A DNA stretch of 64,000 nucleotides from an uncultured bacterium (GCA_963717435.1 OY970332.1:928001-992000), one strand, 5' to 3'. Shown: positions 9,965-62,821, counted from the stretch's first letter. Numbers and translations are program-made. The notes: generated from the letters alone by a model not told the origin.

Positions 9965-11803
9965 TCAGCAAATTTCAAGTAGCTCTTTTACAATCTGCTC
10001 AGTTGGCATATCGTAAAATTCACCCATATATTTTTTAAGAACTTTTCCAGATTTCGGGTCGACAACAAGCAGCGTCGGGAATCCGGTAATATTATATTCT
10101 TTGTTCAAACTAGCATACGGCTCAGAACCAGAATTAGTGCCGTCAACTTTTAACAAAATAAAATTATCGTTAAGCGCTTGTTTAATTTCAGGTCTTACCA
10201 AGACTGTATTTTCAATAGCTTTACAGATAGAGCACCATTTTGCCCCGAAATCTATAAATAGATTTTTCGCTTCAGTTTCTGCTTTTTGTCTTGCATAACT
10301 ATAATCAGTGATCCATGTAATATCAGCAATATTTTCTTGCATAAAAGTGGTTTTATAACTTTGCATGAATACAATAAAGCTGCTTGCAATTAACAACATT
10401 CCGATTAAACTTTTTACTCGTTTTGTGCTTTTAGACTCATGGGTTTTAATATTATAAATATAATAAACTCCGCTTGCCAAAATAAAGCTTGCAAGAATCC
10501 AGATCAAAACCCACCAAGGGATTATTGCTTGCAAATAATAAAAGCACATGCCGATTAGCAAAAATCCGAATATCTTTTTAACTTCAACCATCCACATCCC
10601 AGCTTGCGGCAGCAAGTTAATCGATGTTGAAAAAGTTGCGATAATTAATAATGGGAAACTTGAGCCAACACCAAATGCAAACAACATCATAAAGCCAAGA
10701 AATTTATTGGCCATTGTTGCAACTATGCTCAAAATTAAAGCTAATCCAGGTGACAAGCAGGGTGATGCGATTGTGCCGCTTGCTGCACCAAAAACAAAAG
10801 CAGATAAATATGAACCATGCTTAAATCTGTGATCTTTGGGTTGCAAAAATCTTGGGATATACATCTCGTAAAACCCGAACATAGAAAATGCTAAATATCC
10901 CAAAAATAAAACAAGCGCGATCACAAATATTGGGTTGCCCAAAATCTGACCAAACGCCATCGAACCAAACGAAGCTAAAAGCCCAAATGCAGCAAACGTT
11001 AAGCCAATACCAAGCGTGTAGCAAACAGCAGCAATAACATTTGACACAAAAGATTTTGTTGCACTTTGTTGTAATATTCCAATAGTAACAGGGATCATAG
11101 GATAGATGCACGGCGTTAAGCTCATCATTAAGCCGAGCATAAATGCCAAGAAGATTTTGAACCATATTGATTCACTGTGTTGTAAATTTCCCCAGACATA
11201 ATCTTTAATTTTTTCAAACTGCTCCGCCAAAAAGTTTATAATTTTCTTTACTGTTAAAGTTATTAATGACCACGGGCCGCTCGGCGCAGGCGTATGCTTG
11301 GTTTTGCATCTTTCTGCCATAATCGCATTTTGAGCTTCGGTTTCACTTGAGCTTAGTTCGTTATCTGAACCAATAATTTCTTGCGGTTTTTCTTTTTCTT
11401 TAAATTTTACGTGAATAATTTTCTCTTGCCAGCTCTTTTTTCCGCTTACAAGATATGTCAAAAATACGTCGGCGTTTTCGGCTTCACTTTCCGGATTTCT
11501 TGTTACTGTCAGTTTTACTTTTGTGTTTTTGTTATAAACAATTTTGCTGTCTTTAAACTGTTGATCATCAAAAGACTTTACTGCAACCTGTTCTGTCTGC
11601 CAATCAGAAATCTTAAAGTCCGGTGAGTCCACAGAAAAGCTTATCGAATCTTTATAAAGCTGATTTTTTTTACTTAATTTGAAATCAACTGTTAAAAGCT
11701 GACTGTTTTCATCAATCTCTTTTAACTGGTAACTGACATGAGAATATAACCCCAAAGTTATATTTAGTAATAAAATAAATATTGACCTAAAAAACGCTGA
11801 CAT
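9965..11803 (-). CDS. dsbD: Thiol:disulfide interchange protein DsbD
   Basis: SLTPCIYPMIP, ASPCLSP, LPQAGMWM and a C-terminal thioredoxin WCSIC. Confidence 0.92.
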   Translation of the reverse strand: MSAFFRSIFILLLNITLGLYSHVSYQLKEIDENSQLLTVDFKLSKKNQLYKDSISFSVDSPDFKISDWQTEQVAVKSFDDQQFKDSKIVYNKNTKVKLTVTRNPESEAENADVFLTYLVSGKKSWQEKIIHVKFKEKEKPQEIIGSDNELSSSETEAQNAIMAERCKTKHTPAPSGPWSLITLTVKKIINFLAEQFEKIKDYVWGNLQHSESIWFKIFLAFMLGLMMSLTPCIYPMIPVTIGILQQSATKSFVSNVIAAVCYTLGIGLTFAAFGLLASFGSMAFGQILGNPIFVIALVLFLGYLAFSMFGFYEMYIPRFLQPKDHRFKHGSYLSAFVFGAASGTIASPCLSPGLALILSIVATMANKFLGFMMLFAFGVGSSFPLLIIATFSTSINLLPQAGMWMVEVKKIFGFLLIGMCFYYLQAIIPWWVLIWILASFILASGVYYIYNIKTHESKSTKRVKSLIGMLLIASSFIVFMQSYKTTFMQENIADITWITDYSYARQKAETEAKNLFIDFGAKWCSICKAIENTVLVRPEIKQALNDNFILLKVDGTNSGSEPYASLNKEYNITGFPTLLVVDPKSGKVLKKYMGEFYDMPTEQIVKELLEIC

Positions 11804-11853
11804 TTTTTCTCCCAAAAGTTTAAATTTAAAAAATTTATATTTTTAGTATACAC

Positions 11854-13217: not shown

Positions 13218-14726
13218 ATGTTTTCTAATAAATTTATTTTTAATCATCTAGTAGTTTATTTATGTCTTTTGGTCAGCCCAAGCATCATTGCAGATGGTTC
13301 AACTCGTTCTACGTCTGCGTATATTTCTAAGTGGACGCAACCATCTCATGGAGGGTTTGTTACAATTCGCAAAAAGCAACCCTTATCTATTTACGCAGCT
13401 ATATCATTTAATAACAATCCAGATAATGAATTGATTGAAAAATATCTTTTGTTTTTAAGGCCAAAAATGGCAAATCTTGGAATTAAAATTGATAAAACAC
13501 CACATAACCCATTTAGCTTTGTCATAAAAAATGGCAAAATTTCTAAATCCGACATAATCACAATTATTTATGAAGCTAACCACCACTTTGACCCAAATTT
13601 TAAAACTCCAGCAGAGCTGGCAGCTCAAAATGCTAAAGAAAGAGCTGAAAGAGATGTGCTTCAGGAACAACTTAGGGAAGCTGAGATAAAGCGTAAAGCT
13701 GAAGAGCTAAGATTGAGACTTGAAAATGAGGCGAGATTAAGAAAGTTAGCGATTGAAGCTGAAGAAGCACTAATGAAAAGGATGGCGCAGGAGGAAAGAG
13801 AAAGAGTACAAAAACTTCAAATTGAGTATAAAGAATGGGAAAAAATTAATAACAGCAAAATTGGAAAATATCATGTTAGAGCTCTTCCTATAGATATGTA
13901 TACATCTACAAATAAGCCTTTAAGTGAAAATGGCCAGATATGCGGTGAACTAATTTATCATGATAAGAGCTATAATTATGAAAAGGCAGTAATTTGGGAT
14001 CCTATTCACGGATTAAAAATATTTGCAAAAGAACAAAGTACTGCTGGTGGAATAAATGACTTTGGTTTTGTAGCGGTTAACTTAAAAGCAGATTATCATC
14101 GTAACCAAATAATTCTTTGGGACACAAAGTCAGATAAATTAATATTTGGTCCATTCGGCCAGTCAATTTCATTTAACAATAAAAACCAAATTTTATTTGA
14201 AAATGATAAAATTTGGAATTCCAGCAACAATACCATTAATTCACTTAACACTCGCTCAAAGTATATAGATGATAATGGAAGCGCTCTTTTATCAAGTCAT
14301 TCGATGAATTATATAGATATCAACAAGAAAGGTGCTGCCATAAATTTTTCTTCTATGGGTTTATATATTAATACAGGAAATTATATGGCCCCATTAGTAA
14401 TCCCAGAAGGTGGGGTTGTTTTCGAAGCAAAAATTAATAATAACAACGAAGTTGCAACAATATACAAGAACAGATTGATTATTTGGGATAACAAACAAAA
14501 GATAACAGCCCATGATTCTTTAGAGGATATCATAAAATGGGTCGAAGGCTATGAATTGAGAAATGGGCTTAAGGGATCTGAATATTTTAGTAAGCTTGAA
14601 GATTGGAAGGCTCATAATTTAAATTTTGAAGTTCTAGCTTTCAATTGCGCAAGGCAAATTCTAATTAGGCTCAAAATAACTTCATTTAAAAATAAGCAAT
14701 TCCTATTTTTATTGTCCCCAAAATAA
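13218..14726 (+). CDS. Exported protein with coiled coil and HAF-like beta repeats
   Basis: Signal-like N-terminus, E/K/R-rich coil, repeats GINDFGFVA / SFNNKNQI / DINKKG / KINNNNEVA. Confidence 0.6.
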   Translation: MFSNKFIFNHLVVYLCLLVSPSIIADGSTRSTSAYISKWTQPSHGGFVTIRKKQPLSIYAAISFNNNPDNELIEKYLLFLRPKMANLGIKIDKTPHNPFSFVIKNGKISKSDIITIIYEANHHFDPNFKTPAELAAQNAKERAERDVLQEQLREAEIKRKAEELRLRLENEARLRKLAIEAEEALMKRMAQEERERVQKLQIEYKEWEKINNSKIGKYHVRALPIDMYTSTNKPLSENGQICGELIYHDKSYNYEKAVIWDPIHGLKIFAKEQSTAGGINDFGFVAVNLKADYHRNQIILWDTKSDKLIFGPFGQSISFNNKNQILFENDKIWNSSNNTINSLNTRSKYIDDNGSALLSSHSMNYIDINKKGAAINFSSMGLYINTGNYMAPLVIPEGGVVFEAKINNNNEVATIYKNRLIIWDNKQKITAHDSLEDIIKWVEGYELRNGLKGSEYFSKLEDWKAHNLNFEVLAFNCARQILIRLKITSFKNKQFLFLLSPK

Positions 14727-14811: not shown

Positions 14812-14930
14812 ACTTTTTGTATATTTTCTTAGGGTCAAAAAATAGTTTGTTAAGATGTTATAATTCATGGGAATTTATCTTATAATATATAGGCTCCTAG
14901 TTGAGACTTATATTATATACGAGGTTTTTT

Positions 14931-15827
14931 ATGAATGTTTTTATTGATGAATCAGGCAAGTTTCGCGCGCCAGAAAATATTTCCAGCCAACCTAATTACG
15001 AATGTATTATTGCAATTATATTGAGTAATGATGCCCTAATAAAATTTGAAGAAAAATTTGGAGAAAAAAGTAAGCTTTGTTTGCGTCTTAATGCAAGGGA
15101 CGTTATTAAGTTTATCGAGGAAAACGGTTGTAGAGCATTTGCTGTTATATACGATTCCAATCTATCTTCAAAAAACACTATTGAAGAACATAAAAAAGAC
15201 TATATAAGATCTATATATAAATCATCTGCAAATCATCCATTTTTTTTACAAGAAACTGTTAAACATCATGCTGAAAAATTATCTAAATTTAGCCCAAATG
15301 AATATATTAAAGCTTTATTATCGATTAAATTATTAGAAAATGTGTTGAGAGCTGTCATAGGAAACTCTACAGAGTTTTTGAAATATGATCTAAAGAAATT
15401 CGAATTTGTGTGCGATTCAGGAAATTGCAATATCGAATCAACGATCAAGTATTTCAGTTTGTTTTCTATGTTTTGTAATTCTGCAAATAACCCTATTTGC
15501 TTTGATAATAGGGAAAATATTCAGCATTTGATAGATCCATCAGGCAAGTATCTTGACGCCAGGTTGATTTTTGAAAATATTAATTTTGTTTCATCAGGGG
15601 ATGTCGCAGGTGTTAGGGCAGTAGATGTTGTTTCTAACCAGCTGTTCAGAATTTTGCATGAAGAATCAGTTGATTATGATATAGAAAGATGGAAAAATAT
15701 ATTTTCCAATCCTTATAGTTTTGATTTTTTATCTTTTGATAAAGATCAGGAATTTATAGATAGCGAAATCGGAGAAAAGGCGTTTGTTTTCCCTAAATTA
15801 TTAGGCAAAATTAATAACCTTGTATAA
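14931..15827 (+). CDS. DUF3800-like protein (RNase H-like acidic motifs)
   Basis: N-terminal VFIDESG, central FVCD, C-terminal GVRAVDVVS. Confidence 0.6.
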   Translation: MNVFIDESGKFRAPENISSQPNYECIIAIILSNDALIKFEEKFGEKSKLCLRLNARDVIKFIEENGCRAFAVIYDSNLSSKNTIEEHKKDYIRSIYKSSANHPFFLQETVKHHAEKLSKFSPNEYIKALLSIKLLENVLRAVIGNSTEFLKYDLKKFEFVCDSGNCNIESTIKYFSLFSMFCNSANNPICFDNRENIQHLIDPSGKYLDARLIFENINFVSSGDVAGVRAVDVVSNQLFRILHEESVDYDIERWKNIFSNPYSFDFLSFDKDQEFIDSEIGEKAFVFPKLLGKINNLV

Positions 15828-15928
15828 ATTTTATAGACCCATCTTTTGTCCCGTTTCTTCAAATCATATTTAATTTTACATTACTCTTGTTTGTAATATA
15901 ATAACCCAGATTAATTTAGGGATGAATC

Positions 15929-17827
15929 ATGGGAAAATTATTAATTACAACAATTGGCTCGGGCTTGTTTTTTCTTGGTTTATTTGGGCATGATAGCAAT
16001 AATGTAAATGCTAGATTTACCAATGAGTTTGCGCATCCTAAAATTTTAAAGTTTGAAAATAATCACCATCTTTATGATTTCAATAAAGAATTAAAAAAAG
16101 AGGGTTTATATTACCCTAAAAATAATATTACTTATAATAATCCTGCATTAAATGTTTTTTATAATCCTAGTGATTGCTGGAATTGGCAAGAAAATGATTA
16201 TTGGAACGCTTTGCTGATATTATTTGGTAAAGAATATTCAATAGGTCAGAGAGCAAATTTGCCTCAAGAATATAAGATTTTTTGTACAACAGCCACCCAT
16301 AATTATTATATTCATGATAATGATCGACAGTCTTTATTTAACCAACCAGAATTATACAATTTCCCAGCTTTCTGGGATTTTATTAAAAAATTTCCCGATT
16401 ACCCATCTTGCATTTATAAAGTTAAAGAACTAGTTGATTTTAATCCTAAAATCAAAAATAGATTTTCTAATAAAGCTTTAGACGAAATTAACAGAGAATA
16501 TTCGAGAATAAAAGGCTTTGAAGAACAGCACCAACAGTTAATAAATAATGCGAAAAACAGAGAAGTTTTTCAGCGGCGAGTAGATTCCGTTTTTCAGAGT
16601 CAGTTTGATGATTGCGTAAAAAAAGAAGAAGAGTACAAAGAGCTTAATAGTTTGTATCGGGAATATAATCTTGGAGATTGTGCAAGAATCCAAAGACGCA
16701 TAGATGCAATAGATAATATTAAAGAAACTGGATCAAAATATATTGATAAAAGCTATAATCTGGCCCCTAATCTTCTTGGCTATTTAAGCAATAATAATAT
16801 TAATTCTGAAAAATATGGCACATGTTATGGTAATCAACTTCAACACGTTATTCACCAAGAATGTGTTGATATTCTTAATAATAGCTTTTCTTTGAGCCCA
16901 CAATCTTATGCATTTGGTTATAAGAGCCCAATAATTACATTCGCTGATGCTGCTTGTGATTATAACAAAATGGGATTAACCTCTAGGGCCATGGATATAA
17001 CAGATGCCTGTTGGGCTTTTTTTGATTATGGCAAAGCCATTTTTGAGGGCGTTTCTGAGGGTCTAATTAGCGCCGCGAAAGATTTGATTGACCACCCGAT
17101 TCAAGCCGGGTTATGTGTTGTTGCGGGAGAATATGTTTTTGCTTATCAGTTATCAAAATTAATTTATAATGTTGCCGAAATTGGTATTACGTCTTTAGTA
17201 GACAAACGGGCTGGCGCCCAAAAATGGCAAGAATATGTCGCGCCACTTTCGCAACTGATCGATGCGGTGCAAAATAAGCAAATAAGCTTGCGGCATGGAA
17301 TCAAGGGCGTAACGCGTACCGTTGTTGAGTGGAAGACGCAAGACAAGCTTCTTGGTGGATTGAGTGGGTTCCTTAGGACCACAAAAAAGAAGGCGATAGA
17401 TTTCTTCAAAGATAATCCACTTGCAACACCTGAACAGTATGTGACGACCCCTGATGGAATGTTATTTAGGTCGACTGACAAGCTCAATTCTAAAAGGAAC
17501 TCAAGTCTTGATAAAATTACGGAAAAGGTATCTAAGAAAAGTCTTCTTAAGAAGCATCAGCTACCCATTAAGGGAAGAATTCGCTATGTTCCACCTAAAG
17601 ATTTACATGCCAATAAGGGATTGCCATGTAAAAGATTAGACAATAACGGAATTGGCTTCGTTGATCGTTTTGATAATGTTTGGGTAAAGGGTGTTAGTCG
17701 AACCAAGGGTCAGGCTTTCGAGTGGGATGTTCAGCTTTCAAATCAGGGCAGGCAGAAACTTGGATGGATGAGTCGTGATGGCGAACATATTAATGTAAGT
17801 TTAGACGGAAGGATAACTCATAAATGA
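15929..17827 (+). CDS. Secreted polymorphic toxin with C-terminal Ntox17-like predicted RNase domain
   Basis: Signal peptide; C-terminus GRIRYVPP...GFVDRFDNVWVKGVSRTKGQAFEWDVQLS...GEHINVSLDGRITHK (ExD motif plus His). Confidence 0.75.
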   Translation: MGKLLITTIGSGLFFLGLFGHDSNNVNARFTNEFAHPKILKFENNHHLYDFNKELKKEGLYYPKNNITYNNPALNVFYNPSDCWNWQENDYWNALLILFGKEYSIGQRANLPQEYKIFCTTATHNYYIHDNDRQSLFNQPELYNFPAFWDFIKKFPDYPSCIYKVKELVDFNPKIKNRFSNKALDEINREYSRIKGFEEQHQQLINNAKNREVFQRRVDSVFQSQFDDCVKKEEEYKELNSLYREYNLGDCARIQRRIDAIDNIKETGSKYIDKSYNLAPNLLGYLSNNNINSEKYGTCYGNQLQHVIHQECVDILNNSFSLSPQSYAFGYKSPIITFADAACDYNKMGLTSRAMDITDACWAFFDYGKAIFEGVSEGLISAAKDLIDHPIQAGLCVVAGEYVFAYQLSKLIYNVAEIGITSLVDKRAGAQKWQEYVAPLSQLIDAVQNKQISLRHGIKGVTRTVVEWKTQDKLLGGLSGFLRTTKKKAIDFFKDNPLATPEQYVTTPDGMLFRSTDKLNSKRNSSLDKITEKVSKKSLLKKHQLPIKGRIRYVPPKDLHANKGLPCKRLDNNGIGFVDRFDNVWVKGVSRTKGQAFEWDVQLSNQGRQKLGWMSRDGEHINVSLDGRITHK

Positions 17828-18210
17828 ATCTCCCAGCTTGTTTTTTAATTGAATGCATTATTACAGATGGCAAAAATATTTCTAATGAATTATTTGAACA
17901 ATTAAAAGAACTTATCGAAAAGCGTTTTGACAAATCAGATGTAAAAATAACATCGTTGAATAAGTATTGGAAATATCCCGATACTAAGCAGATTATTTTT
18001 GAGGTAAGAGCAAAAAATTTTATATCTGTAGAAGAGTTTACTAAATTATTTAATATAACGTGGAAGCATTCTAAATTGCCCGTAAGCAATTATGACACAA
18101 AGAAAACAGTGGACCAAGAAAGTGCTGTGTGGAATAGAAATATGTATCCTGAAGAAACATTTTTGAACAGCGATGTAGAATGGGTCCATGTTTATTCATG
18201 GCTAGATTGA
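17824..18210 (+). CDS. Putative immunity protein
   Basis: 128-aa ORF with ATGA overlap onto the toxin stop codon. Confidence 0.65.
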   Translation: MNLPACFLIECIITDGKNISNELFEQLKELIEKRFDKSDVKITSLNKYWKYPDTKQIIFEVRAKNFISVEEFTKLFNITWKHSKLPVSNYDTKKTVDQESAVWNRNMYPEETFLNSDVEWVHVYSWLD

Positions 18211-18277
18211 AATTCTGCCTCGAATAAATTTGAAAAAAATAAGTGGGTACAAATTTTTATTTACTATCTAAACCCAC
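18209..18277. repeat. Right copy of imperfect direct repeat (includes last codons of PP2C)
   Basis: GAAATTCTGCCTCGAATAAATTTGAAAAAAATAAG plus TTATTTACTATCTAAACCCAC. Confidence 0.8.
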
Positions 18278-19318
18278 AACAATAACAGAAATATTATCAC
18301 CGCTTTGGTTGGCAAAAGCGGCGTCGCGCAGGGCAGCTGCTGCGTCCAGGGCATTTTGTGAGTTGCCCGCGTTGTCAGATTTTTCAGAACCGAAATCTGG
18401 TTTGTGTGTTATATTAATTACGTTATCTTTTTTATCAAACTTTTCTGAAACAATTTTGGCCGCTTTTTCGTTATCTATAACATCCCAAACGCCGTCGCAT
18501 GCGATAATTAAATATTTGTGATCGTGAGTAAGTTTAATCGTGTGAATTTCAGGTATTCCTGATACCGCTCCGCCGTCAATTATTTTCCCCGCGCTGTTTG
18601 GTTGCTTAAATAAAAAATCTCCAAACGCACGTGAAACTGCAAGCAATGTGCTTACTCCCGGGATATAAATTCTTGGAACATCTTCTTCTTCACAAACAAC
18701 TTTGCCCCCATTTTTTTCAATACGTTCAGTTTCTTCAAGATTTATGGGCTTATGATCCCGCGATTCCCAATCAATATTATTATTTTTATCAACTAAGATT
18801 GCGCGTGAGTCGCCAAGCCAAGCGACAGTCAAGATTTTGTGGCCAGTTTTGTCTATTTCTATGTGGCCTACAACAGCTGTTGAACCCATGCTATCTGCAT
18901 AAGATTTTGTTTTTAGATCATCTTCTATGCGTGCAAAAGTTTTTAAGAATATTTGATCAGTTCTAGTTAATTTTTTTGTTTCCTGAGATTTTTCTGATTT
19001 TTCTATCTGATGATGATCTGCCTCATGATGTACAACAAATTTGTTGAATTCAAAATGCTCTATAAATTTTTCTTGGGCATATTCGGCAACCTTTTTGCCC
19101 CCGTGTCCATCAAAAATGCCAAACAAAAATTCGTTATTTGTTTTTTCCATAGGATGCGCGACAATATGCGTATCTTCCATAGTTATACGTCTTCCCTGAC
19201 GTGCGCTTAGACCCCAAGCAAATCTGTGTGCAGTTGTTTTATATTCACCAGATAATCCAGGCGCTATAAATACTAAACTTAGAAAAATAGTAAAAAGCCT
19301 AACTGATTGGTTTTTCAT
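18257..19318 (-). CDS. PP2C/PPM Ser/Thr phosphatase, eukaryote-type, with signal peptide
   Basis: QGRRITMED, FDGHGG, GSTA, LGDSRA, DHKP, LAVSRAFGD, ACDGVWDV and GDNISV motifs. Confidence 0.92.
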   Translation of the reverse strand: MKNQSVRLFTIFLSLVFIAPGLSGEYKTTAHRFAWGLSARQGRRITMEDTHIVAHPMEKTNNEFLFGIFDGHGGKKVAEYAQEKFIEHFEFNKFVVHHEADHHQIEKSEKSQETKKLTRTDQIFLKTFARIEDDLKTKSYADSMGSTAVVGHIEIDKTGHKILTVAWLGDSRAILVDKNNNIDWESRDHKPINLEETERIEKNGGKVVCEEEDVPRIYIPGVSTLLAVSRAFGDFLFKQPNSAGKIIDGGAVSGIPEIHTIKLTHDHKYLIIACDGVWDVIDNEKAAKIVSEKFDKKDNVINITHKPDFGSEKSDNAGNSQNALDAAAALRDAAFANQSGDNISVIVVGLDSK

Positions 19319-19518
19319 GAAAAAATCTTAAAGATTAAATTTTAATTTACCGGGATCGATAATATAAAAAAGCTGCGTGTTTATCAAGACTTGTATTTAA
19401 GCGTTTTTTATTTGTGGGCAGTAACTAATTAGTCGGGTTGTTTACAAGCCGAACTTGAATTGGGTAGGGTGTTTATGTTGAGTTGTGTATTATTAAAAAT
19501 AGGGGAGAGCGTGTGTGT

Positions 19519-20223
19519 ATGGATTTTTTAAAAAATCTTATAACTAAGCTGATTTTTGCGTTGAATTTAGTCTCTGTTTCACAAATTGCAGGGGCAGTTT
19601 ATGAATCGGGCAGGAATGGCGGGAACGGGCGTGAGATTACTGAAAAAAATGCCTCGGCGCAGGCTTTGCAGGCCATAAAGAACGAAAATATGTCTCTTCT
19701 TGCAGATTTAGTAAAATATTATAAAAAACAGGGTATCGATATTAACGAGCCAGTTGATGTGTTGGGTAGAAAATATGATCTTTTGGGAGCAGCGATTTCC
19801 TGGGGAAAAGTGAAAGCTGCTAAATTCTTGTTAAGTAATGGGGCGAAATTGAAAGACGAATTTGAAATTAAATCTGTCAAAACAGCGCCGCTTATTTATA
19901 CCAAATCTATGGCTGAACTTTTGATACCTCGAGGGGTTATCGTACCGAAAATTAAAGATGTAATAGATAAGATGCGTGCGGATTCTCTTACAAAAATGCT
20001 TGATGTTAAAGAAACCGGATTAGCTTTGATAAAGTTTTTGGTAGGTCACGGTGCAGAGTTTGATCGTACCGTGATAAATAGTATTAATGCCGCTATTCAA
20101 GATTTGATTGCCGATGAAAATCATGTTTTTGTTAACAACAGTAAACATTTTCAAGAAGATTATAGCGCAGAATTCAAGGCGATAAAAAAATATCTTGATG
20201 AAAAACTAAAAAATCGCAACTAA
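19519..20223 (+). CDS. Exported protein with degenerate ankyrin repeats
   Basis: Signal-like N-terminus; LLGAAISWGKVKAAKFLLSNGAK and IKFLVGHGAEF. Confidence 0.6.
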   Translation: MDFLKNLITKLIFALNLVSVSQIAGAVYESGRNGGNGREITEKNASAQALQAIKNENMSLLADLVKYYKKQGIDINEPVDVLGRKYDLLGAAISWGKVKAAKFLLSNGAKLKDEFEIKSVKTAPLIYTKSMAELLIPRGVIVPKIKDVIDKMRADSLTKMLDVKETGLALIKFLVGHGAEFDRTVINSINAAIQDLIADENHVFVNNSKHFQEDYSAEFKAIKKYLDEKLKNRN

Positions 20224-20324: not shown

Positions 20325-21257
20325 TTACGCTATAATACACAGTTCGCGAAGTTTCTTTATTACGTCTTGCTCAAGTTCCTCCCAGATTGCGCCCTTTTTA
20401 ATTAAATATTGTACAACATTAGATTTGATATCGATGTTGCCAAATTGGTCATGTGTTGCATAATATAATGGCTTTAAACCATATGCGTTTAATGCATTTA
20501 TATCAGCTTGATATTGTTTTAATAATTTGCACATATAAAAGTCATTGTTATATGCTGCAATATGCATTAAATATTGAGTGTTGCCGTATTTGTGATTTAC
20601 CATATCTAAATTTGGATTAGCTTGCCTGTTGCATTTTAAAATTTTAAAAGCCTGTCTTTTATTTTTAAATACTACCGCCCAATAAAGTTTGTCGCTTTCT
20701 GAAATTTTTTCACTAAGGTATAAAGCTATTTCAAGTTGCACAATAACTTTCTGGCTTAGAATTTTCCAGTCCGCTCCATTTGCTATCAAAAACAAAGCAA
20801 CTTCGAACTTTATTTTCATATTGTCGAATTTATCATGCGTTGCATAATATAGTGGCGTATGCCCCAAACGGTTTTTTACATTCAAATCTGCGCCATATTG
20901 TTTTAACAATGCGCACATGTTTAAATCACCGTTGTTTGCTGCTATATGAATCAAAGACAGGCCATTGCAATACACGCGATTTACCAAATTAAGCCCGGGT
21001 TTTTCCTGTATAGACGATTCTATTGTTGAACGAGCAGCTTCGACGTTTTTTAGCACAACATGGACATAAATTTTCTCATGATCATACAGATATTGATATG
21101 TGTCGGGGTCTTTCACGACCCTTCTTGCATCATTTTTGGTTGTAATTCCCAGAGTATCTTTTCTAAAGTTAGGGATAAAATTTTGCCCACCTGCTTGTAA
21201 GCTAAGTGCAGTAATTGTGATTGCTATAACTAATTTTGCTAATAATTTTTTCTGCAT
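20325..21257 (-). CDS. Secreted ankyrin-repeat protein ending in CaaX (CIIA)
   Basis: Signal peptide; LIHIAANNGD...GADLNVKNRLGHTPLYYA module present twice. Confidence 0.88.
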   Translation of the reverse strand: MQKKLLAKLVIAITITALSLQAGGQNFIPNFRKDTLGITTKNDARRVVKDPDTYQYLYDHEKIYVHVVLKNVEAARSTIESSIQEKPGLNLVNRVYCNGLSLIHIAANNGDLNMCALLKQYGADLNVKNRLGHTPLYYATHDKFDNMKIKFEVALFLIANGADWKILSQKVIVQLEIALYLSEKISESDKLYWAVVFKNKRQAFKILKCNRQANPNLDMVNHKYGNTQYLMHIAAYNNDFYMCKLLKQYQADINALNAYGLKPLYYATHDQFGNIDIKSNVVQYLIKKGAIWEELEQDVIKKLRELCIIA

Positions 21258-21355: not shown

Positions 21356-22183
21356 TTATATTATCAAGCAGTCGTCAGCATCCGGCTCTTCAGGATTGGG
21401 CTGATTTTGCGAGTTTTGGGGATTTTTATTCTTGTCTTGTATTAATAATAATTTTTTTAGATTTTCTAGTTTTTTTATCTCGGGTTCTGTTGATTGGTTC
21501 GATATTGCGCCCTTTTGGATTAGTATTGTTAGAATTTTTAGTTGTTCCTGTGGGATATTAGCTTGTTGATTATTGCTAAAATTAATTGCGCTTAAAAATA
21601 GATCAAGTGGTGTTTGCCTAGAGCTGTTTTGCTGATTTATTTTAACTTCTGGGTTATAAATAAATATTCTTGCAAGATCATACAAAGAGAAACTCAATGC
21701 TATATGCAAAGGGGTATTTTTGTCATGCTCGGTGCTATTTATCTTTGCATTATAGGCAATTAACATATTGATAATATTGTTGTCTCCCGAATAGTTTTCC
21801 ATGGCAGAAAATATTGCAGTCTCGTTGTTATTGTCAGTAATATTTGGATCAGCACCATGTCGCAACAAAATTTCAACAGCTGCAAAATTGTTTCTTAGGC
21901 ATGCAAGATGCAAAGCTGTTTTTCCATCGCGATTTTTTATATTTATATATTTCGGCTGCGAAGCTAATGTTTCAAGCATATGCGCGTTACCATGCATAAC
22001 AGCAAGATGTATCGCCTGATTCCCGTTATAAGATTTTACTAGAGAGATTGAGTCAAGATCGCCATCTGACAAATCTTGAGAGTCCATAGATAAAATTTTA
22101 GTTTGAAAATTTGAGATAAAAATAAAAGTTAAAAGAAATCTTAATTTGTTTTTAAAACAAATTCTACAAATTGTGTCCCCCAT
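21356..22183 (-). CDS. Ankyrin-repeat protein ending in CaaX (CLII)
   Basis: GNQAIHLA, GKTALHLA and NTPLHIA repeats; hydrophobic N-terminus. Confidence 0.9.
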   Translation of the reverse strand: MGDTICRICFKNKLRFLLTFIFISNFQTKILSMDSQDLSDGDLDSISLVKSYNGNQAIHLAVMHGNAHMLETLASQPKYINIKNRDGKTALHLACLRNNFAAVEILLRHGADPNITDNNNETAIFSAMENYSGDNNIINMLIAYNAKINSTEHDKNTPLHIALSFSLYDLARIFIYNPEVKINQQNSSRQTPLDLFLSAINFSNNQQANIPQEQLKILTILIQKGAISNQSTEPEIKKLENLKKLLLIQDKNKNPQNSQNQPNPEEPDADDCLII

Positions 22184-61664: not shown

Positions 61665-62821
61665 TTAACGACTCATATGCGGTAAACGTTGTTGGAGAAA
61701 TTCTCTTAGAAGCTATCAAATTGGGCGCGTCAGATATCCACTGCGAACCAGAAGAAGCGGGGCTGAGAATCAGATTCAGAATGGATGGCGTGCTTTATGA
61801 CAAAATGGTTATAGAGTCCGATTATGGCCTGCAGGTTATTTCAAGAATAAAAGTTATGGCCAATGTCAATGTCGCTGAAAAACGTTTGCCACAAGATGGA
61901 AAACTAAGCTTACAAATTAATAGTAATTTGGTTGATCTGCGTGTTTCGACTTTTCCAACTTTGCTTGGCGAAAAAGTTGTAATTAGAATTCTAGATAGAG
62001 AGAAAAACGCTATAACGCTAGAGAGTCTTGGTTTTGAATCGGATATGCTAGAAAAATTTAATCGACTTACACAGACCTCTAACGGTTTTTTTTTAGTCAC
62101 GGGCCCCACAGGCTCTGGAAAAACGACAAGTTTATATTCAGTTCTTTCAGTATTAAATTCGCCTGAAAAAAATATAATCACACTTGAAGATCCAATAGAA
62201 TATAAAATTTCTGGAATCACACAAGGACAAATAAATACAGATATCGGCTTTACTTTTGAGCGGGGGATCCGTGCGCTTTTGCGCCAGGACCCAGATATAA
62301 TAATGGTCGGTGAAATACGGGATCGTGAAACTGCGGAAGTCGCGATTCAAGCATCTTTAACTGGCCATCTTGTTTTAAGCACTTTGCATACCAACGACGC
62401 CGTAAGCGCCGTAATGAGACTGATCGACATGGGCATAGAGTCATTTCTGGTGAAAGCTGCGCTGACTGGTGTGTTGGCACAAAGATTGGCAAGAAAGTTG
62501 TGCCAAGATTGCAAATACGAAACAAAATTAGAAGAATATGAGTTTAGTCTTTTAAAAAAGTTTAATATAATTTTAGATAGCGCGTATAAAAGTAAGGGCT
62601 GCACAAACTGTAACGGACTTGGATATAAGGGACGGGCTGGGATTTTTTCTTTATTAGAATTTACAGAAAAATTTAGATCTTTAATAAATCAAAATCCACA
62701 ATTTGAAGATTTATATCAGCAAGCATTACAAGACGGATGCAAGCCATTAGTTTATGACGCAGCATTAAAAGTTTCTAAAGGGTTGATAAGTGTCTCAGAA
62801 TTAATCAGAACGGTGCTATGA
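61661..62821 (+). CDS. GspE/PilB-family secretion/pilus ATPase (short form)
   Basis: ASDIHCEP, GPTGSGKTT, LRQDPD, GHLVLSTLH and CxxC pairs. Confidence 0.93.
   Translation: MINDSYAVNVVGEILLEAIKLGASDIHCEPEEAGLRIRFRMDGVLYDKMVIESDYGLQVISRIKVMANVNVAEKRLPQDGKLSLQINSNLVDLRVSTFPTLLGEKVVIRILDREKNAITLESLGFESDMLEKFNRLTQTSNGFFLVTGPTGSGKTTSLYSVLSVLNSPEKNIITLEDPIEYKISGITQGQINTDIGFTFERGIRALLRQDPDIIMVGEIRDRETAEVAIQASLTGHLVLSTLHTNDAVSAVMRLIDMGIESFLVKAALTGVLAQRLARKLCQDCKYETKLEEYEFSLLKKFNIILDSAYKSKGCTNCNGLGYKGRAGIFSLLEFTEKFRSLINQNPQFEDLYQQALQDGCKPLVYDAALKVSKGLISVSELIRTVL

Follow-up and report, generated by a model that had tools for sequence, protein, structure and literature searches.

A probable two-gene polymorphic toxin-immunity module with exchangeable tails in the Dependentiae

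Introduction

What is encoded by a pair of overlapping genes in a stretch of 64,000 nucleotides (nt) from an uncultured bacterium (GCA_963717435.1 OY970332.1:928001-992000), and against whom are its products directed? The whole stretch is referred to here as the window, positions are counted from its first letter, and the genome it comes from is called the window genome. The first gene, P0001, predicts a protein of 632 amino acids (aa) and the second, P0002, one of 128 aa. An earlier note, drawn from the DNA letters alone, took the pair for a Sec-exported polymorphic RNase toxin and its immunity gene, joined to a delivery region of about 500 aa that it did not recognise, and considered that they might represent a new toxin class. 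From the comparisons described below, the locus is probably a two-gene polymorphic toxin-immunity module of the Dependentiae, in which an exported protein would deliver an RNase tip to bacterial targets and P0002 would block that tip.

The Dependentiae, a phylum of wide occurrence with hardly any cultured members, parasitise protists and have genomes of ~1 Mb. The window genome, a single contig of 1,198,203 bp that is 88.8% complete by marker genes, is by its sequence that of a Dependentiae/Babeliales bacterium, in line with the intracellular parasite supposed earlier. Members of the phylum are known only as intracellular parasites of protists (Deeg 2019, Yeoh 2016). A literature search, which did not extend to the supplementary alignments of Zhang 2012 that could hold members, found no description of polymorphic toxins in Dependentiae, Babeliales or TM6, and the word 'toxin' appears nowhere in Deeg 2019 or Yeoh 2016.

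Results

Constant module and exchangeable tails

A search with residues 25-520 of P0001 retrieved 26 homologues with 32-64% identity. The precomputed C-terminal families of these proteins are EndoU (4 proteins), Ntox17 (2) and Colicin D (1), with none recognised in the remaining 19. In an alignment of 22 proteins, conservation extends from about residue 85 to 510, and the sequences are unrelated beyond a junction with the consensus NPLxTPEQYxTTPEG, in which Y504 is invariant.

The family was extended to 166 proteins, and the 116 whose junction is complete and whose tail has 50 aa or more were used for tail clustering. Their tails, which are 67-227 aa long (median about 129), fall into 27 unrelated BLAST clusters. 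Those with matches above the Pfam cut-off belong to Ntox17, EndoU, Colicin D, Ntox21 and, in one protein, Cytotoxic (colicin E3), and weak matches below the cut-off were to Cytotoxic (in a second protein), Ntox35, DUF4258 and PBECR3. Most tail clusters have no Pfam match, and nothing above the cut-off was found in the five largest unnamed ones. When profiles of the two largest unrecognised tail types were searched against PDB sequences, nothing was found in the tail; of the 11 members of the second type, 7 match DUF4258 weakly, the best with an E value of 7.9e-4 that does not reach the cut-off.

Replacement of the tail can be followed at the nucleotide level in two paralogues from one 1.09-Mb genome, L001 with an Ntox17 tail and L004 with a Colicin D tail. 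Their DNA is 74-97% identical from -134 to about nt 1480, 59% identical in the next interval compared, and 34-42% identical from there through the downstream gene. The break in identity coincides with the junction codons. On these comparisons, tails of at least 27 unrelated types have been exchanged by recombination at a fixed junction, with the constant module kept.

Pairing of tail types with downstream genes

The genes downstream of the toxins were compared initially in 13 loci from metagenome-assembled genomes, labelled in the source as uncultured bacterium (6), Candidatus Dependentiae (3), uncultured Pseudomonadota (2), Candidatus Babeliales (1) and bacterium (1). One of those labelled 'Pseudomonadota', L011, is the same contig as G199, which a genome search places in the order of the window genome. 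In these loci, Ntox17-type toxins are followed by homologues of P0002 (24-41% identity, E 6e-13 to 2e-32) whose start codons overlap the toxin stop codons, and non-Ntox17 toxins are followed by other small genes.

For a formal count, 16 regions from other genomes were added, and the combined set includes 35 module open reading frames (ORFs). Of these, 31 have the whole junction and 50 aa or more of tail, and 29 of the 31 have a same-strand ORF beginning -25 to +200 nt from the stop, leaving 27 distinct toxins once two loci represented twice were removed. The four module ORFs omitted for an incomplete junction are two in L029 and one each in L031 and L037, and L010 and L036 were omitted as they have no qualifying downstream ORF. 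The ORF that follows the L010 toxin begins 33 nt ahead of the toxin stop codon (the limit being -25 nt) and is of the family expected for the L010 tail type. Toxin types were defined by clustering of the last 95 residues; clustering of whole tails mis-chained three toxins, possibly via a shared linker.

The 27 toxins represent 13 toxin types and are followed by 14 downstream families. A downstream family is common to 32 of the 33 same-type pairs, compared with 0 of 318 pairs of different type, and all 7 Ntox17-type toxins in the loci have a P0002 homologue next to them with a 4-nt overlap. The sole exception is L008, where a gene for an ISAZ013-type DDE transposase (L008:7635-8840, E 1.8e-138) adjoins the toxin and a homologue of the expected immunity gene is found 2.8 kb beyond (L008:10327-10956), with the transposase between them. 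By this count, every tail type is accompanied by a downstream gene of its own. Swapped C-termini and changing downstream genes among N-terminal homologues had been named beforehand as the test of the polymorphic toxin reading, and both were seen.

The Ntox17 tip and its predicted complex with P0002

Residues 540-631 of P0001 match Ntox17 (PF15524) with an E value of 6.5e-29 and 100.5 bits against a cut-off of 25, over model positions 7-98 of 98, placing the C-terminus that the earlier note had called Ntox17-like well above the Pfam threshold. The EWD and His motifs it pointed to correspond to E598-W599-D600, H620 and H631, which are invariant in 13 Ntox17-type family members, and D617 is a further conserved residue of the domain. 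The toxin tail is basic, with an isoelectric point (pI) of 10.4. The Ntox17 entry in the table of Zhang 2012 lists conserved ExD and His residues and stands under the heading 'Predicted metal-independent RNase toxins'. The tip of P0001 is thus a predicted RNase, and a literature search found no experimental report on Ntox17 RNase activity.

The P0002 family comprises 30 clusters, including P0002 itself, in a collection of 5.8 billion proteins. No cluster has been given a functional name, all being unnamed or called 'hypothetical protein', and no Pfam domain was found in any; one carries the label Candidatus Babeliales. The partner listed for Ntox17 in Zhang 2012 is Imm31; however, the Imm31 Pfam model matched 0 of 6 P0002-family members at E<=10, a setting at which the HMMER filters drop most matches above ~0.1, and no other Pfam family was convincing. 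Unnamed clusters only were returned for P0002 by the ESM Atlas. The P0002 family appears, from sequence, to be a new immunity family for Ntox17.

The earlier note had proposed complex prediction as a check on the pair. Residues 525-632 of P0001 (13-row alignment) were modelled with P0002 (31 rows), and the median ipSAE (interaction prediction score from aligned errors) was 0.86, with 0.12 for the best of three controls. Among solved complexes, 58 of 80 reached the mark set for this score, and among mismatched pairs 2 of 110 did so, counts that are rough here as custom alignments were used. At least 93% of contacts agree between the three runs, and the partner has a predicted local distance difference test (pLDDT) value of at least 88. 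The predicted interface includes D600, D617, H620, N622 and H631. As neither chain has a solved relative by sequence, it is unlikely that the predictor reproduced a known complex. The model supports binding of P0002 to the Ntox17 domain over its conserved putative active-site residues.

Immunity arrays and tandem modules

The region L011:7803-11008 contains a tight array of about nine small genes after an Ntox17 toxin, with no toxin fragments between them. Three are P0002-like, two of them being extra copies, and members of two other immunity families, the small Cys-rich 'CCFC' family and the 'VGWYPE' family, are also present. We read the array as a poly-immunity locus of heterogeneous content. 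Tandem toxin-immunity modules were seen in L012, which has three toxins, and in L003 and L004, which have two each.

No conserved neighbour family was found across the loci besides the toxins and immunity genes, apart from a small ORF in 3 of 13. These ORFs share a family and adjoin toxins (L001:5394-5759, L003:8242-8493 and L009:3524-3763). We take them to be GIY-YIG-like from the motif YxVYI...GxT..L..RL..HN, and they may mark mobile DNA or be a coincidence.

Organisation of the locus and the toxin protein

The features of the locus are listed in Table 1. Both ORFs and their ATGA coupling are exactly where the earlier note placed them, and they are real genes rather than chance ORFs, because both have many homologues and the toxin folds with high confidence. 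As promoter-like sites are not enriched in the region (14 observed vs 11.1 expected), the one 5′ of the toxin gene is regarded as plausible. An antisense ORF of 107 aa inside the toxin gene (17164-17487, - strand) is 'conserved' in 4 loci only by mirroring the conservation of the sense strand and was rejected as a gene.

Table 1. Features of the toxin-immunity locus and its surroundings in the window (positions in nt; residues are those of P0001).
Feature	Position	Strand	Remarks
DsbD-type thiol:disulfide interchange protein	9965-11815	-	Close to toxin locus
Exported 502-aa protein	13218-14726	+	Upstream of toxin; no family match; charged stretch, probably coiled-coil (by eye)
DUF3800-like protein	14901-15827	+	E 4.8e-6; upstream of toxin
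Promoter-like TTTACA-16 nt-TATAAT	15875-15902	+	5′ of toxin gene; 11/12 consensus matches
AGGGA, Shine-Dalgarno-like motif	15918-15922	+	Read from sequence; upstream of toxin gene
Toxin ORF, P0001	15929-17827	+	632 aa; stop codon included
Signal-peptide-like N-terminus, residues 1-28	15929-16012	+	MGKLLITTIGSGLFFLGLFG...; hydrophobicity heuristic
Variable spacer, residues 29-66	16013-16126	+	Does not align across family; pLDDT <50 at 20-50 and 58-66
Globular 'head', residues 67-375	16127-17053	+	Alpha/beta plus helical; invariant columns in alignment
Hydrophobic/amphipathic helical region, residues 376-494	17054-17410	+	Strongly conserved; includes HPIQAGLCVVAGEYVFAYQLSKLIYNVAEIGI
Junction (pre-toxin boundary) motif, residues 495-510	17411-17458	+	DNPLATPEQYVTTPDG; family homology stops here
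Variable basic linker, residues 511-532	17459-17524	+	pLDDT <50 at 508-512 and 518-531
Ntox17 domain, residues 533-632	17525-17824	+	PF15524 match; block pLDDT >90 at 541-630
GGAAGGA, Shine-Dalgarno-like motif	17807-17813		10 nt before P0002 start; read from sequence
ATGA overlap	17824-17827		P0002 ATG (17824-17826) overlaps P0001 TGA (17825-17827)
Immunity ORF, P0002	17824-18210	+	128 aa; acidic, pI 5.5; without signal peptide; no Pfam match
PP2C-type phosphatase	18257-19318	-	PF00481, E 8.6e-50; signal-peptide-like N-terminus; convergent with immunity gene
Ankyrin-repeat protein	19483-20223	+	Hydrophobic N-terminus
Ankyrin-repeat protein	20325-21257	-	Hydrophobic N-terminus
Ankyrin-repeat protein	21356-22183	-	Hydrophobic N-terminus
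Type II secretion system (T2SS)-type ATPase	~61676-62809		Intact

The signal peptide, hydrophobic pre-toxin stretch and basic linker that the earlier note read into P0001 were each recovered. Residues 1-19 form the most hydrophobic 19-aa window of the protein (Kyte-Doolittle mean 1.61), and we infer cleavage after VNA. A strongly hydrophobic N-terminal window is found in 105 of the 150 family proteins that start with M, and by eye 11 of 12 locus toxins have signal-like N-termini. The top internal hydrophobic window is at residues 394-412, with a mean of 1.17, and residues 511-545, with 10 K+R vs 3 D+E, have a pI of 10.5. The spacer that follows the signal-peptide-like segment is probably disordered, judging from the model.

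The head includes the invariant motif GNQLQ (residues 301-305) and H309, and Y345/N346 and C361 are also conserved. GNQLQ is separated from the junction by ~210 residues in 7 of the 8 locus toxins in which the junction pattern was matched, and by 231 in L011. When folded alone (residues 67-380), the head was modelled with a pLDDT of 95.4 and a predicted template modelling score of 0.81, as a small sheet of three strands, a helix of 65 residues and a helical bundle bearing the invariant polar residues. In the full-length model, which has a mean pLDDT of 79.9, block values are mostly >90 at 71-370 and fall to <50 at 375-396. Helices are predicted at 390-424, 426-448 and 454-495 in the region that follows (block pLDDT 37-75), and A399, Y402, A405, L408 and K410 in the hydrophobic AGEYVFAYQLSK stretch (399-410) are invariant in the 22-protein alignment.

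P0001 contains 11 cysteines. Given these and the DsbD-type gene nearby, periplasmic disulfide handling could matter for the toxin.

Sequence and fold searches with the module

The region of about 500 aa reported as unrecognised proved to be so in each search made. Residues 1-539 have no Pfam or NCBIfam match (NCBIfam was negative for both P0001 and P0002), and the best E values against PDB sequences were 0.099 for the module profile, 0.1 for the toxin domain and 0.28 for the immunity profile. The absence of known delivery hallmarks was also borne out, with no match to Pfam models for RHS, CdiA/TPS (two-partner secretion), LXG, VgrG/PAAR or MafB in P0001 (E<=1) or the 22 aligned relatives (E<=0.01). 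No LXG/WXG N-terminal domain was found by Pfam in P0001 or its relatives, a signal-peptide-like N-terminus being present there instead, and the PT-TG pre-toxin domain (PF14449) matched neither P0001 nor the 22 relatives.

With the whole P0001 model, Foldseek returned 0 PDB matches at E<=1e-3 (best 0.074), a wide VIA search gave a best Z of 6.7 with 0 of 48,161 chains at Z>=8, and the best E in BFVD was 0.1. With the head alone, the best Z was 6.8 (root mean square deviation (rmsd) 3.6, 93 aligned), again with 0 chains at Z>=8, and the best Foldseek E was 0.14. The lists returned by the fold searches barely covered residues 67-156 and the Ntox17 domain. Colicin B aligned to the module with a Foldseek E of 0.23 and a TM score of about 0.1, which is noise, and the values for AhlC (Z 5.8, rmsd 4.3, 156 aligned) and Hbl-B (Z 5.7, rmsd 6.2, 171 aligned) are within the noise band of the tool for helical models. 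Because Foldseek and VIA-align give no relative above the stated noise, the predicted fold of the module is called unrecognised, rather than proven new.

ESM Atlas matches to PT-TG (0.83) and to a MafB cluster (0.85, with 102 of 256 features common) are below the 0.9 mark of the Atlas, and Pfam did not bear them out. Two motif-based readings were dropped. If GNQLQ...YNQxG is taken as lytic-transglycosylase-like, it finds no SLT Pfam match and no lysozyme-like chain in the best 50 of either VIA list, and a papain-like role for the conserved 'CW' at residue 361 does not suit the all-helical context.

Distribution of the module

A module-only profile was made from 12 sequences from the window and the loci. 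Against 1.84 billion representatives (50% clustering), it gave 830 matches at E<=1e-3, a number that fell to 531 at E<=1e-10 and to 187 at E<=1e-30. Among genomes of the phylum, the module was detected at E<=1e-10 in 66 of 261, which includes 47 of the 189 of high quality, and in 45 of 145 when counted by genus, with up to 7 matches per genome. The module family appears to be large, restricted to Dependentiae and apparently undescribed.

Within the window genome's own family, 3 of 40 other genomes match, weakly and partially, and in another family, which holds the close relatives, 34 of 80 genomes match. The flanking PP2C gene, used in a synteny check for insertion, is present in just 3 of 40 relatives in the window genome's family. 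Lateral acquisition of the module by the window genome is offered as a suggestion, because the profile was mostly built from close relatives and the contrast between families is biased. The window genome has one module and no spare cassettes or orphan immunity genes, as tblastn searches with 26 immunity-like ORFs and 116 tails found the locus itself only.

Elsewhere, one toxin copy (G231:C1:1012405-1013925) has an in-frame TAA, so some toxin paralogues appear to be decaying. The module is distant from the N-terminus in 13 proteins, none of which has RHS, FHA (filamentous haemagglutinin) or VgrG domains, and it is at the end of the much longer metagenomic proteins P0098 (2093 aa), P0067 (1443 aa) and P0055 (1323 aa). 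A PT-HINT domain (E 7e-7) is found near the N-terminus of P0098. Many weaker genome matches cover the head alone (profile positions ~150-390) in ORFs of 500-1400 aa, and the head domain may serve in other architectures too.

Neighbouring genes and secretion components

The PP2C-type protein encoded downstream of P0002 is probably a secreted eukaryote-like effector. The ankyrin-repeat proteins clustered beside the toxin locus are typical Dependentiae candidates for host interaction. The lowest G+C in the window, 0.30, is in the 14-16 kb stretch.

Sec export and numerous signal-peptide proteins have been described in Dependentiae (Deeg 2019, Yeoh 2016), and every TM6 genome is reported to have T2SS components together with two gspD genes (Yeoh 2016). 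The window genome has two secretins in addition to the ATPase in Table 1. A decayed second copy of a T2SS/type IV pilus-type ATPase (PF00437) with 8 in-frame stops is located outside the window, at G000:C1:297436-298582. TssC (PF05943) and VirB4 were not found in the window genome; as this is just 88.8% complete, absence of type VI and type IV secretion systems (T6SS and T4SS) is unproven.

Discussion

Function and targets of the toxin

The findings are best accounted for if P0001 and P0002 form a polymorphic toxin-immunity module used among bacteria, which we consider probable. P0001 would be exported by Sec and may cross the outer membrane through T2SS-type secretins. In the producer cytoplasm, P0002 would bind the Ntox17 domain over its acidic and His residues and block the toxin. 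The constant module would either anchor the toxin or carry it into the target cell, entry being the favoured role, with its hydrophobic helices inserting into the target membrane and the Ntox17 tip then cutting RNA in the target cell. The targets would most probably be related bacteria in the same protist host. Bacterial targets are favoured because relatives carry extra immunity arrays and tandem modules and every recognised tail is of a bacterial-conflict family; the extra arrays are a signature of bacterial conflict rather than of host manipulation.

A number of points weigh against this interpretation. The signal peptide and the outer-membrane route are both heuristic assignments. Transmembrane helices classically exceed a Kyte-Doolittle threshold of ~1.6, and a transmembrane helix at residues 394-412 was rejected, the mean there being below this value and the segment modelled with low confidence. 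In the window genome the module is single, and neither orphan immunity genes nor spare cassettes were found; the conflict signature therefore comes from its relatives. No MafA- or CdiB-like partner gene is conserved beside the toxins in the loci, which leaves the entry route without a supporting component. Living obligately inside host cells restricts contact with competing bacteria. RNase activity of Ntox17 is a prediction taken from the table of Zhang 2012, and a review of Salmonella T6SS puts 'NTox_17' among predicted pore-forming domains, which may be other nomenclature. Finally, the host has been suggested as the target of nucleases that Dependentiae secrete (Deeg 2019).

The last point leads to a host-directed effector, whose tip would degrade host RNA in the protist vacuole or cytoplasm, for shutdown or nucleotide supply, with the module carrying the tip through the host membrane as a translocation domain does in AB toxins and P0002 just protecting the producer before export. 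Obligate intracellular parasites with many signal-peptide effectors, for which secreted nucleases acting on host polymers have been proposed (Deeg 2019), would suit such a role. The neighbouring genes for a signal-peptide PP2C and ankyrin-repeat proteins are likely to be host-directed, the window genome lacks orphan immunity genes, and the conserved hydrophobic helical region could cross a host membrane. However, host toxins of endosymbionts are typically without immunity genes in the account of Zhang 2012, whereas here every tail type has its own tightly coupled downstream gene. A toxin aimed purely at the host also leaves the extra immunity arrays of the relatives unexplained, none of the tails was seen to carry a eukaryote-interaction domain, and all Pfam-recognised tails come from bacterial conflict families. 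We judge this alternative to be rather improbable, and still accord it real weight. A cytoplasmic toxin-antitoxin or defence pair, with an unrelated role for the N-terminal region, would share the tight coupling and the order of toxin followed by a small acidic inhibitor. It is highly improbable, as signal-peptide-like N-termini are conserved in the family and a constant region of 480 aa whose tails are exchanged at a recombination junction marks a secreted polymorphic toxin, not a type II toxin-antitoxin system.

If the pair is a toxin and its immunity gene, as preferred here, the part played by the constant module has still to be considered. It may be a self-sufficient entry device of new fold, with a head that binds a receptor and hydrophobic helices that carry the RNase tip across the membrane, and this is put forward tentatively as a possible, though doubtful, account. 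Alternatively, the module could be a mere surface anchor or clustering domain without translocation of its own, delivery occurring by contact or vesicles, which is likewise conceivable and on the unlikely side. Anchoring or homotypic clustering was proposed in Zhang 2012 for the constant domains that follow the signal peptide in MafB-N, Microscilla-N and APD1/2, and putative outer-membrane vesicles are described in Deeg 2019. The protein could be retained in the outer membrane of the producer by its hydrophobic helices, and the sub-threshold, unconfirmed ESM Atlas lead to MafB (0.85) points in the same direction. In opposition to this, P0001 has no lipobox, the Pfam MafB model does not match, there is no conserved anchoring partner gene nearby, and a module of ~480 aa with two distinct conserved parts is more than a simple anchor requires.

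Significance

About a quarter of the genomes of the phylum (66/261), though reduced, invest in this family. With up to 7 matches in one genome, this argues for a real selective pressure, most simply competition with co-infecting bacteria. The module, whose head has a high-confidence model and which resembles nothing solved above the noise of the searches, could show how Sec-exported polymorphic toxins, MafB included, reach their targets, and the loci yield many toxin tips and immunity proteins without a Pfam match. If the module is an entry device, a Sec-exported free protein would kill neighbouring Dependentiae within a shared protist without a T5, T6 or T7 (type V, VI or VII secretion) machine. 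It would then represent a third general solution to the import of nuclease toxins, beside colicins and contact-dependent systems, and some twenty toxin and immunity families not yet described would be stored in it.

Comparison with known systems

A Sec signal followed by a lineage-specific constant domain, a variable toxin and an immunity gene has been described for MafB, Microscilla-N and APD1/2 (Zhang 2012, section 37). Of the proposal that the locus represents a new polymorphic toxin class, the new module family stands, and the novelty does not extend to the principle of the architecture, which was already known from that work. MafB/MafI of Neisseria is alike in its signal peptide, lineage-restricted constant domain, variable C-terminal toxin and downstream immunity gene. 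MafB also has several paralogous loci per genome, and Ntox17 is among the MafB-class tails (Zhang 2012). It differs in that PF06255 matches neither P0001 nor the 22 relatives, there is no upstream MafA-like lipoprotein gene, the Dependentiae module is another family restricted to Dependentiae, and its Ntox17 immunity protein is not Imm31.

APD1 and APD2 of Amoebophilus asiaticus and Microscilla-N also combine lineage-specific constant N-terminal domains with polymorphic C-termini, and APD1/2 follow a signal peptide in an intracellular amoeba symbiont (Zhang 2012). APD proteins have a lipobox and ubiquitin-system or other eukaryote-directed domains, are without immunity genes and are read as host-directed. 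The Dependentiae toxins, by contrast, have no lipobox, an immunity gene for each tail and recognised tails of RNase type; the two are set apart by description only. In proteobacterial Ntox17-Imm31 pairs, the toxin family (PF15524) is the same as in P0001, and the partner found here is a different, Babeliales-restricted family.

In CdiA and Rhs proteins, the junction is marked by motifs such as VENN. CdiA-CT/CdiI and Rhs-CT/RhsI resemble the present loci in having a sharp junction motif, tips displaced by recombination, a cognate downstream immunity gene and orphan immunity genes, which here were seen in relatives and not in the window genome. However, no TPS domain, FHA repeats, CdiB, YD repeats or PAAR were found for the Dependentiae toxins or loci, where the junction is NPLxTPEQYxTTPEG and the carrier is just ~480 aa and, we infer, Sec-exported. 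Colicins are not known to carry a signal peptide and depend on plasmid lysis proteins for release, and no fold relation to them was detected. Tails of the Colicin D and colicin-E3-like types nevertheless occur in the Dependentiae family, and colicins E3 and D share with P0001 and P0002 a compact basic C-terminal RNase, a larger helical region before it, which serves uptake in colicins, and a small acidic immunity protein encoded downstream.

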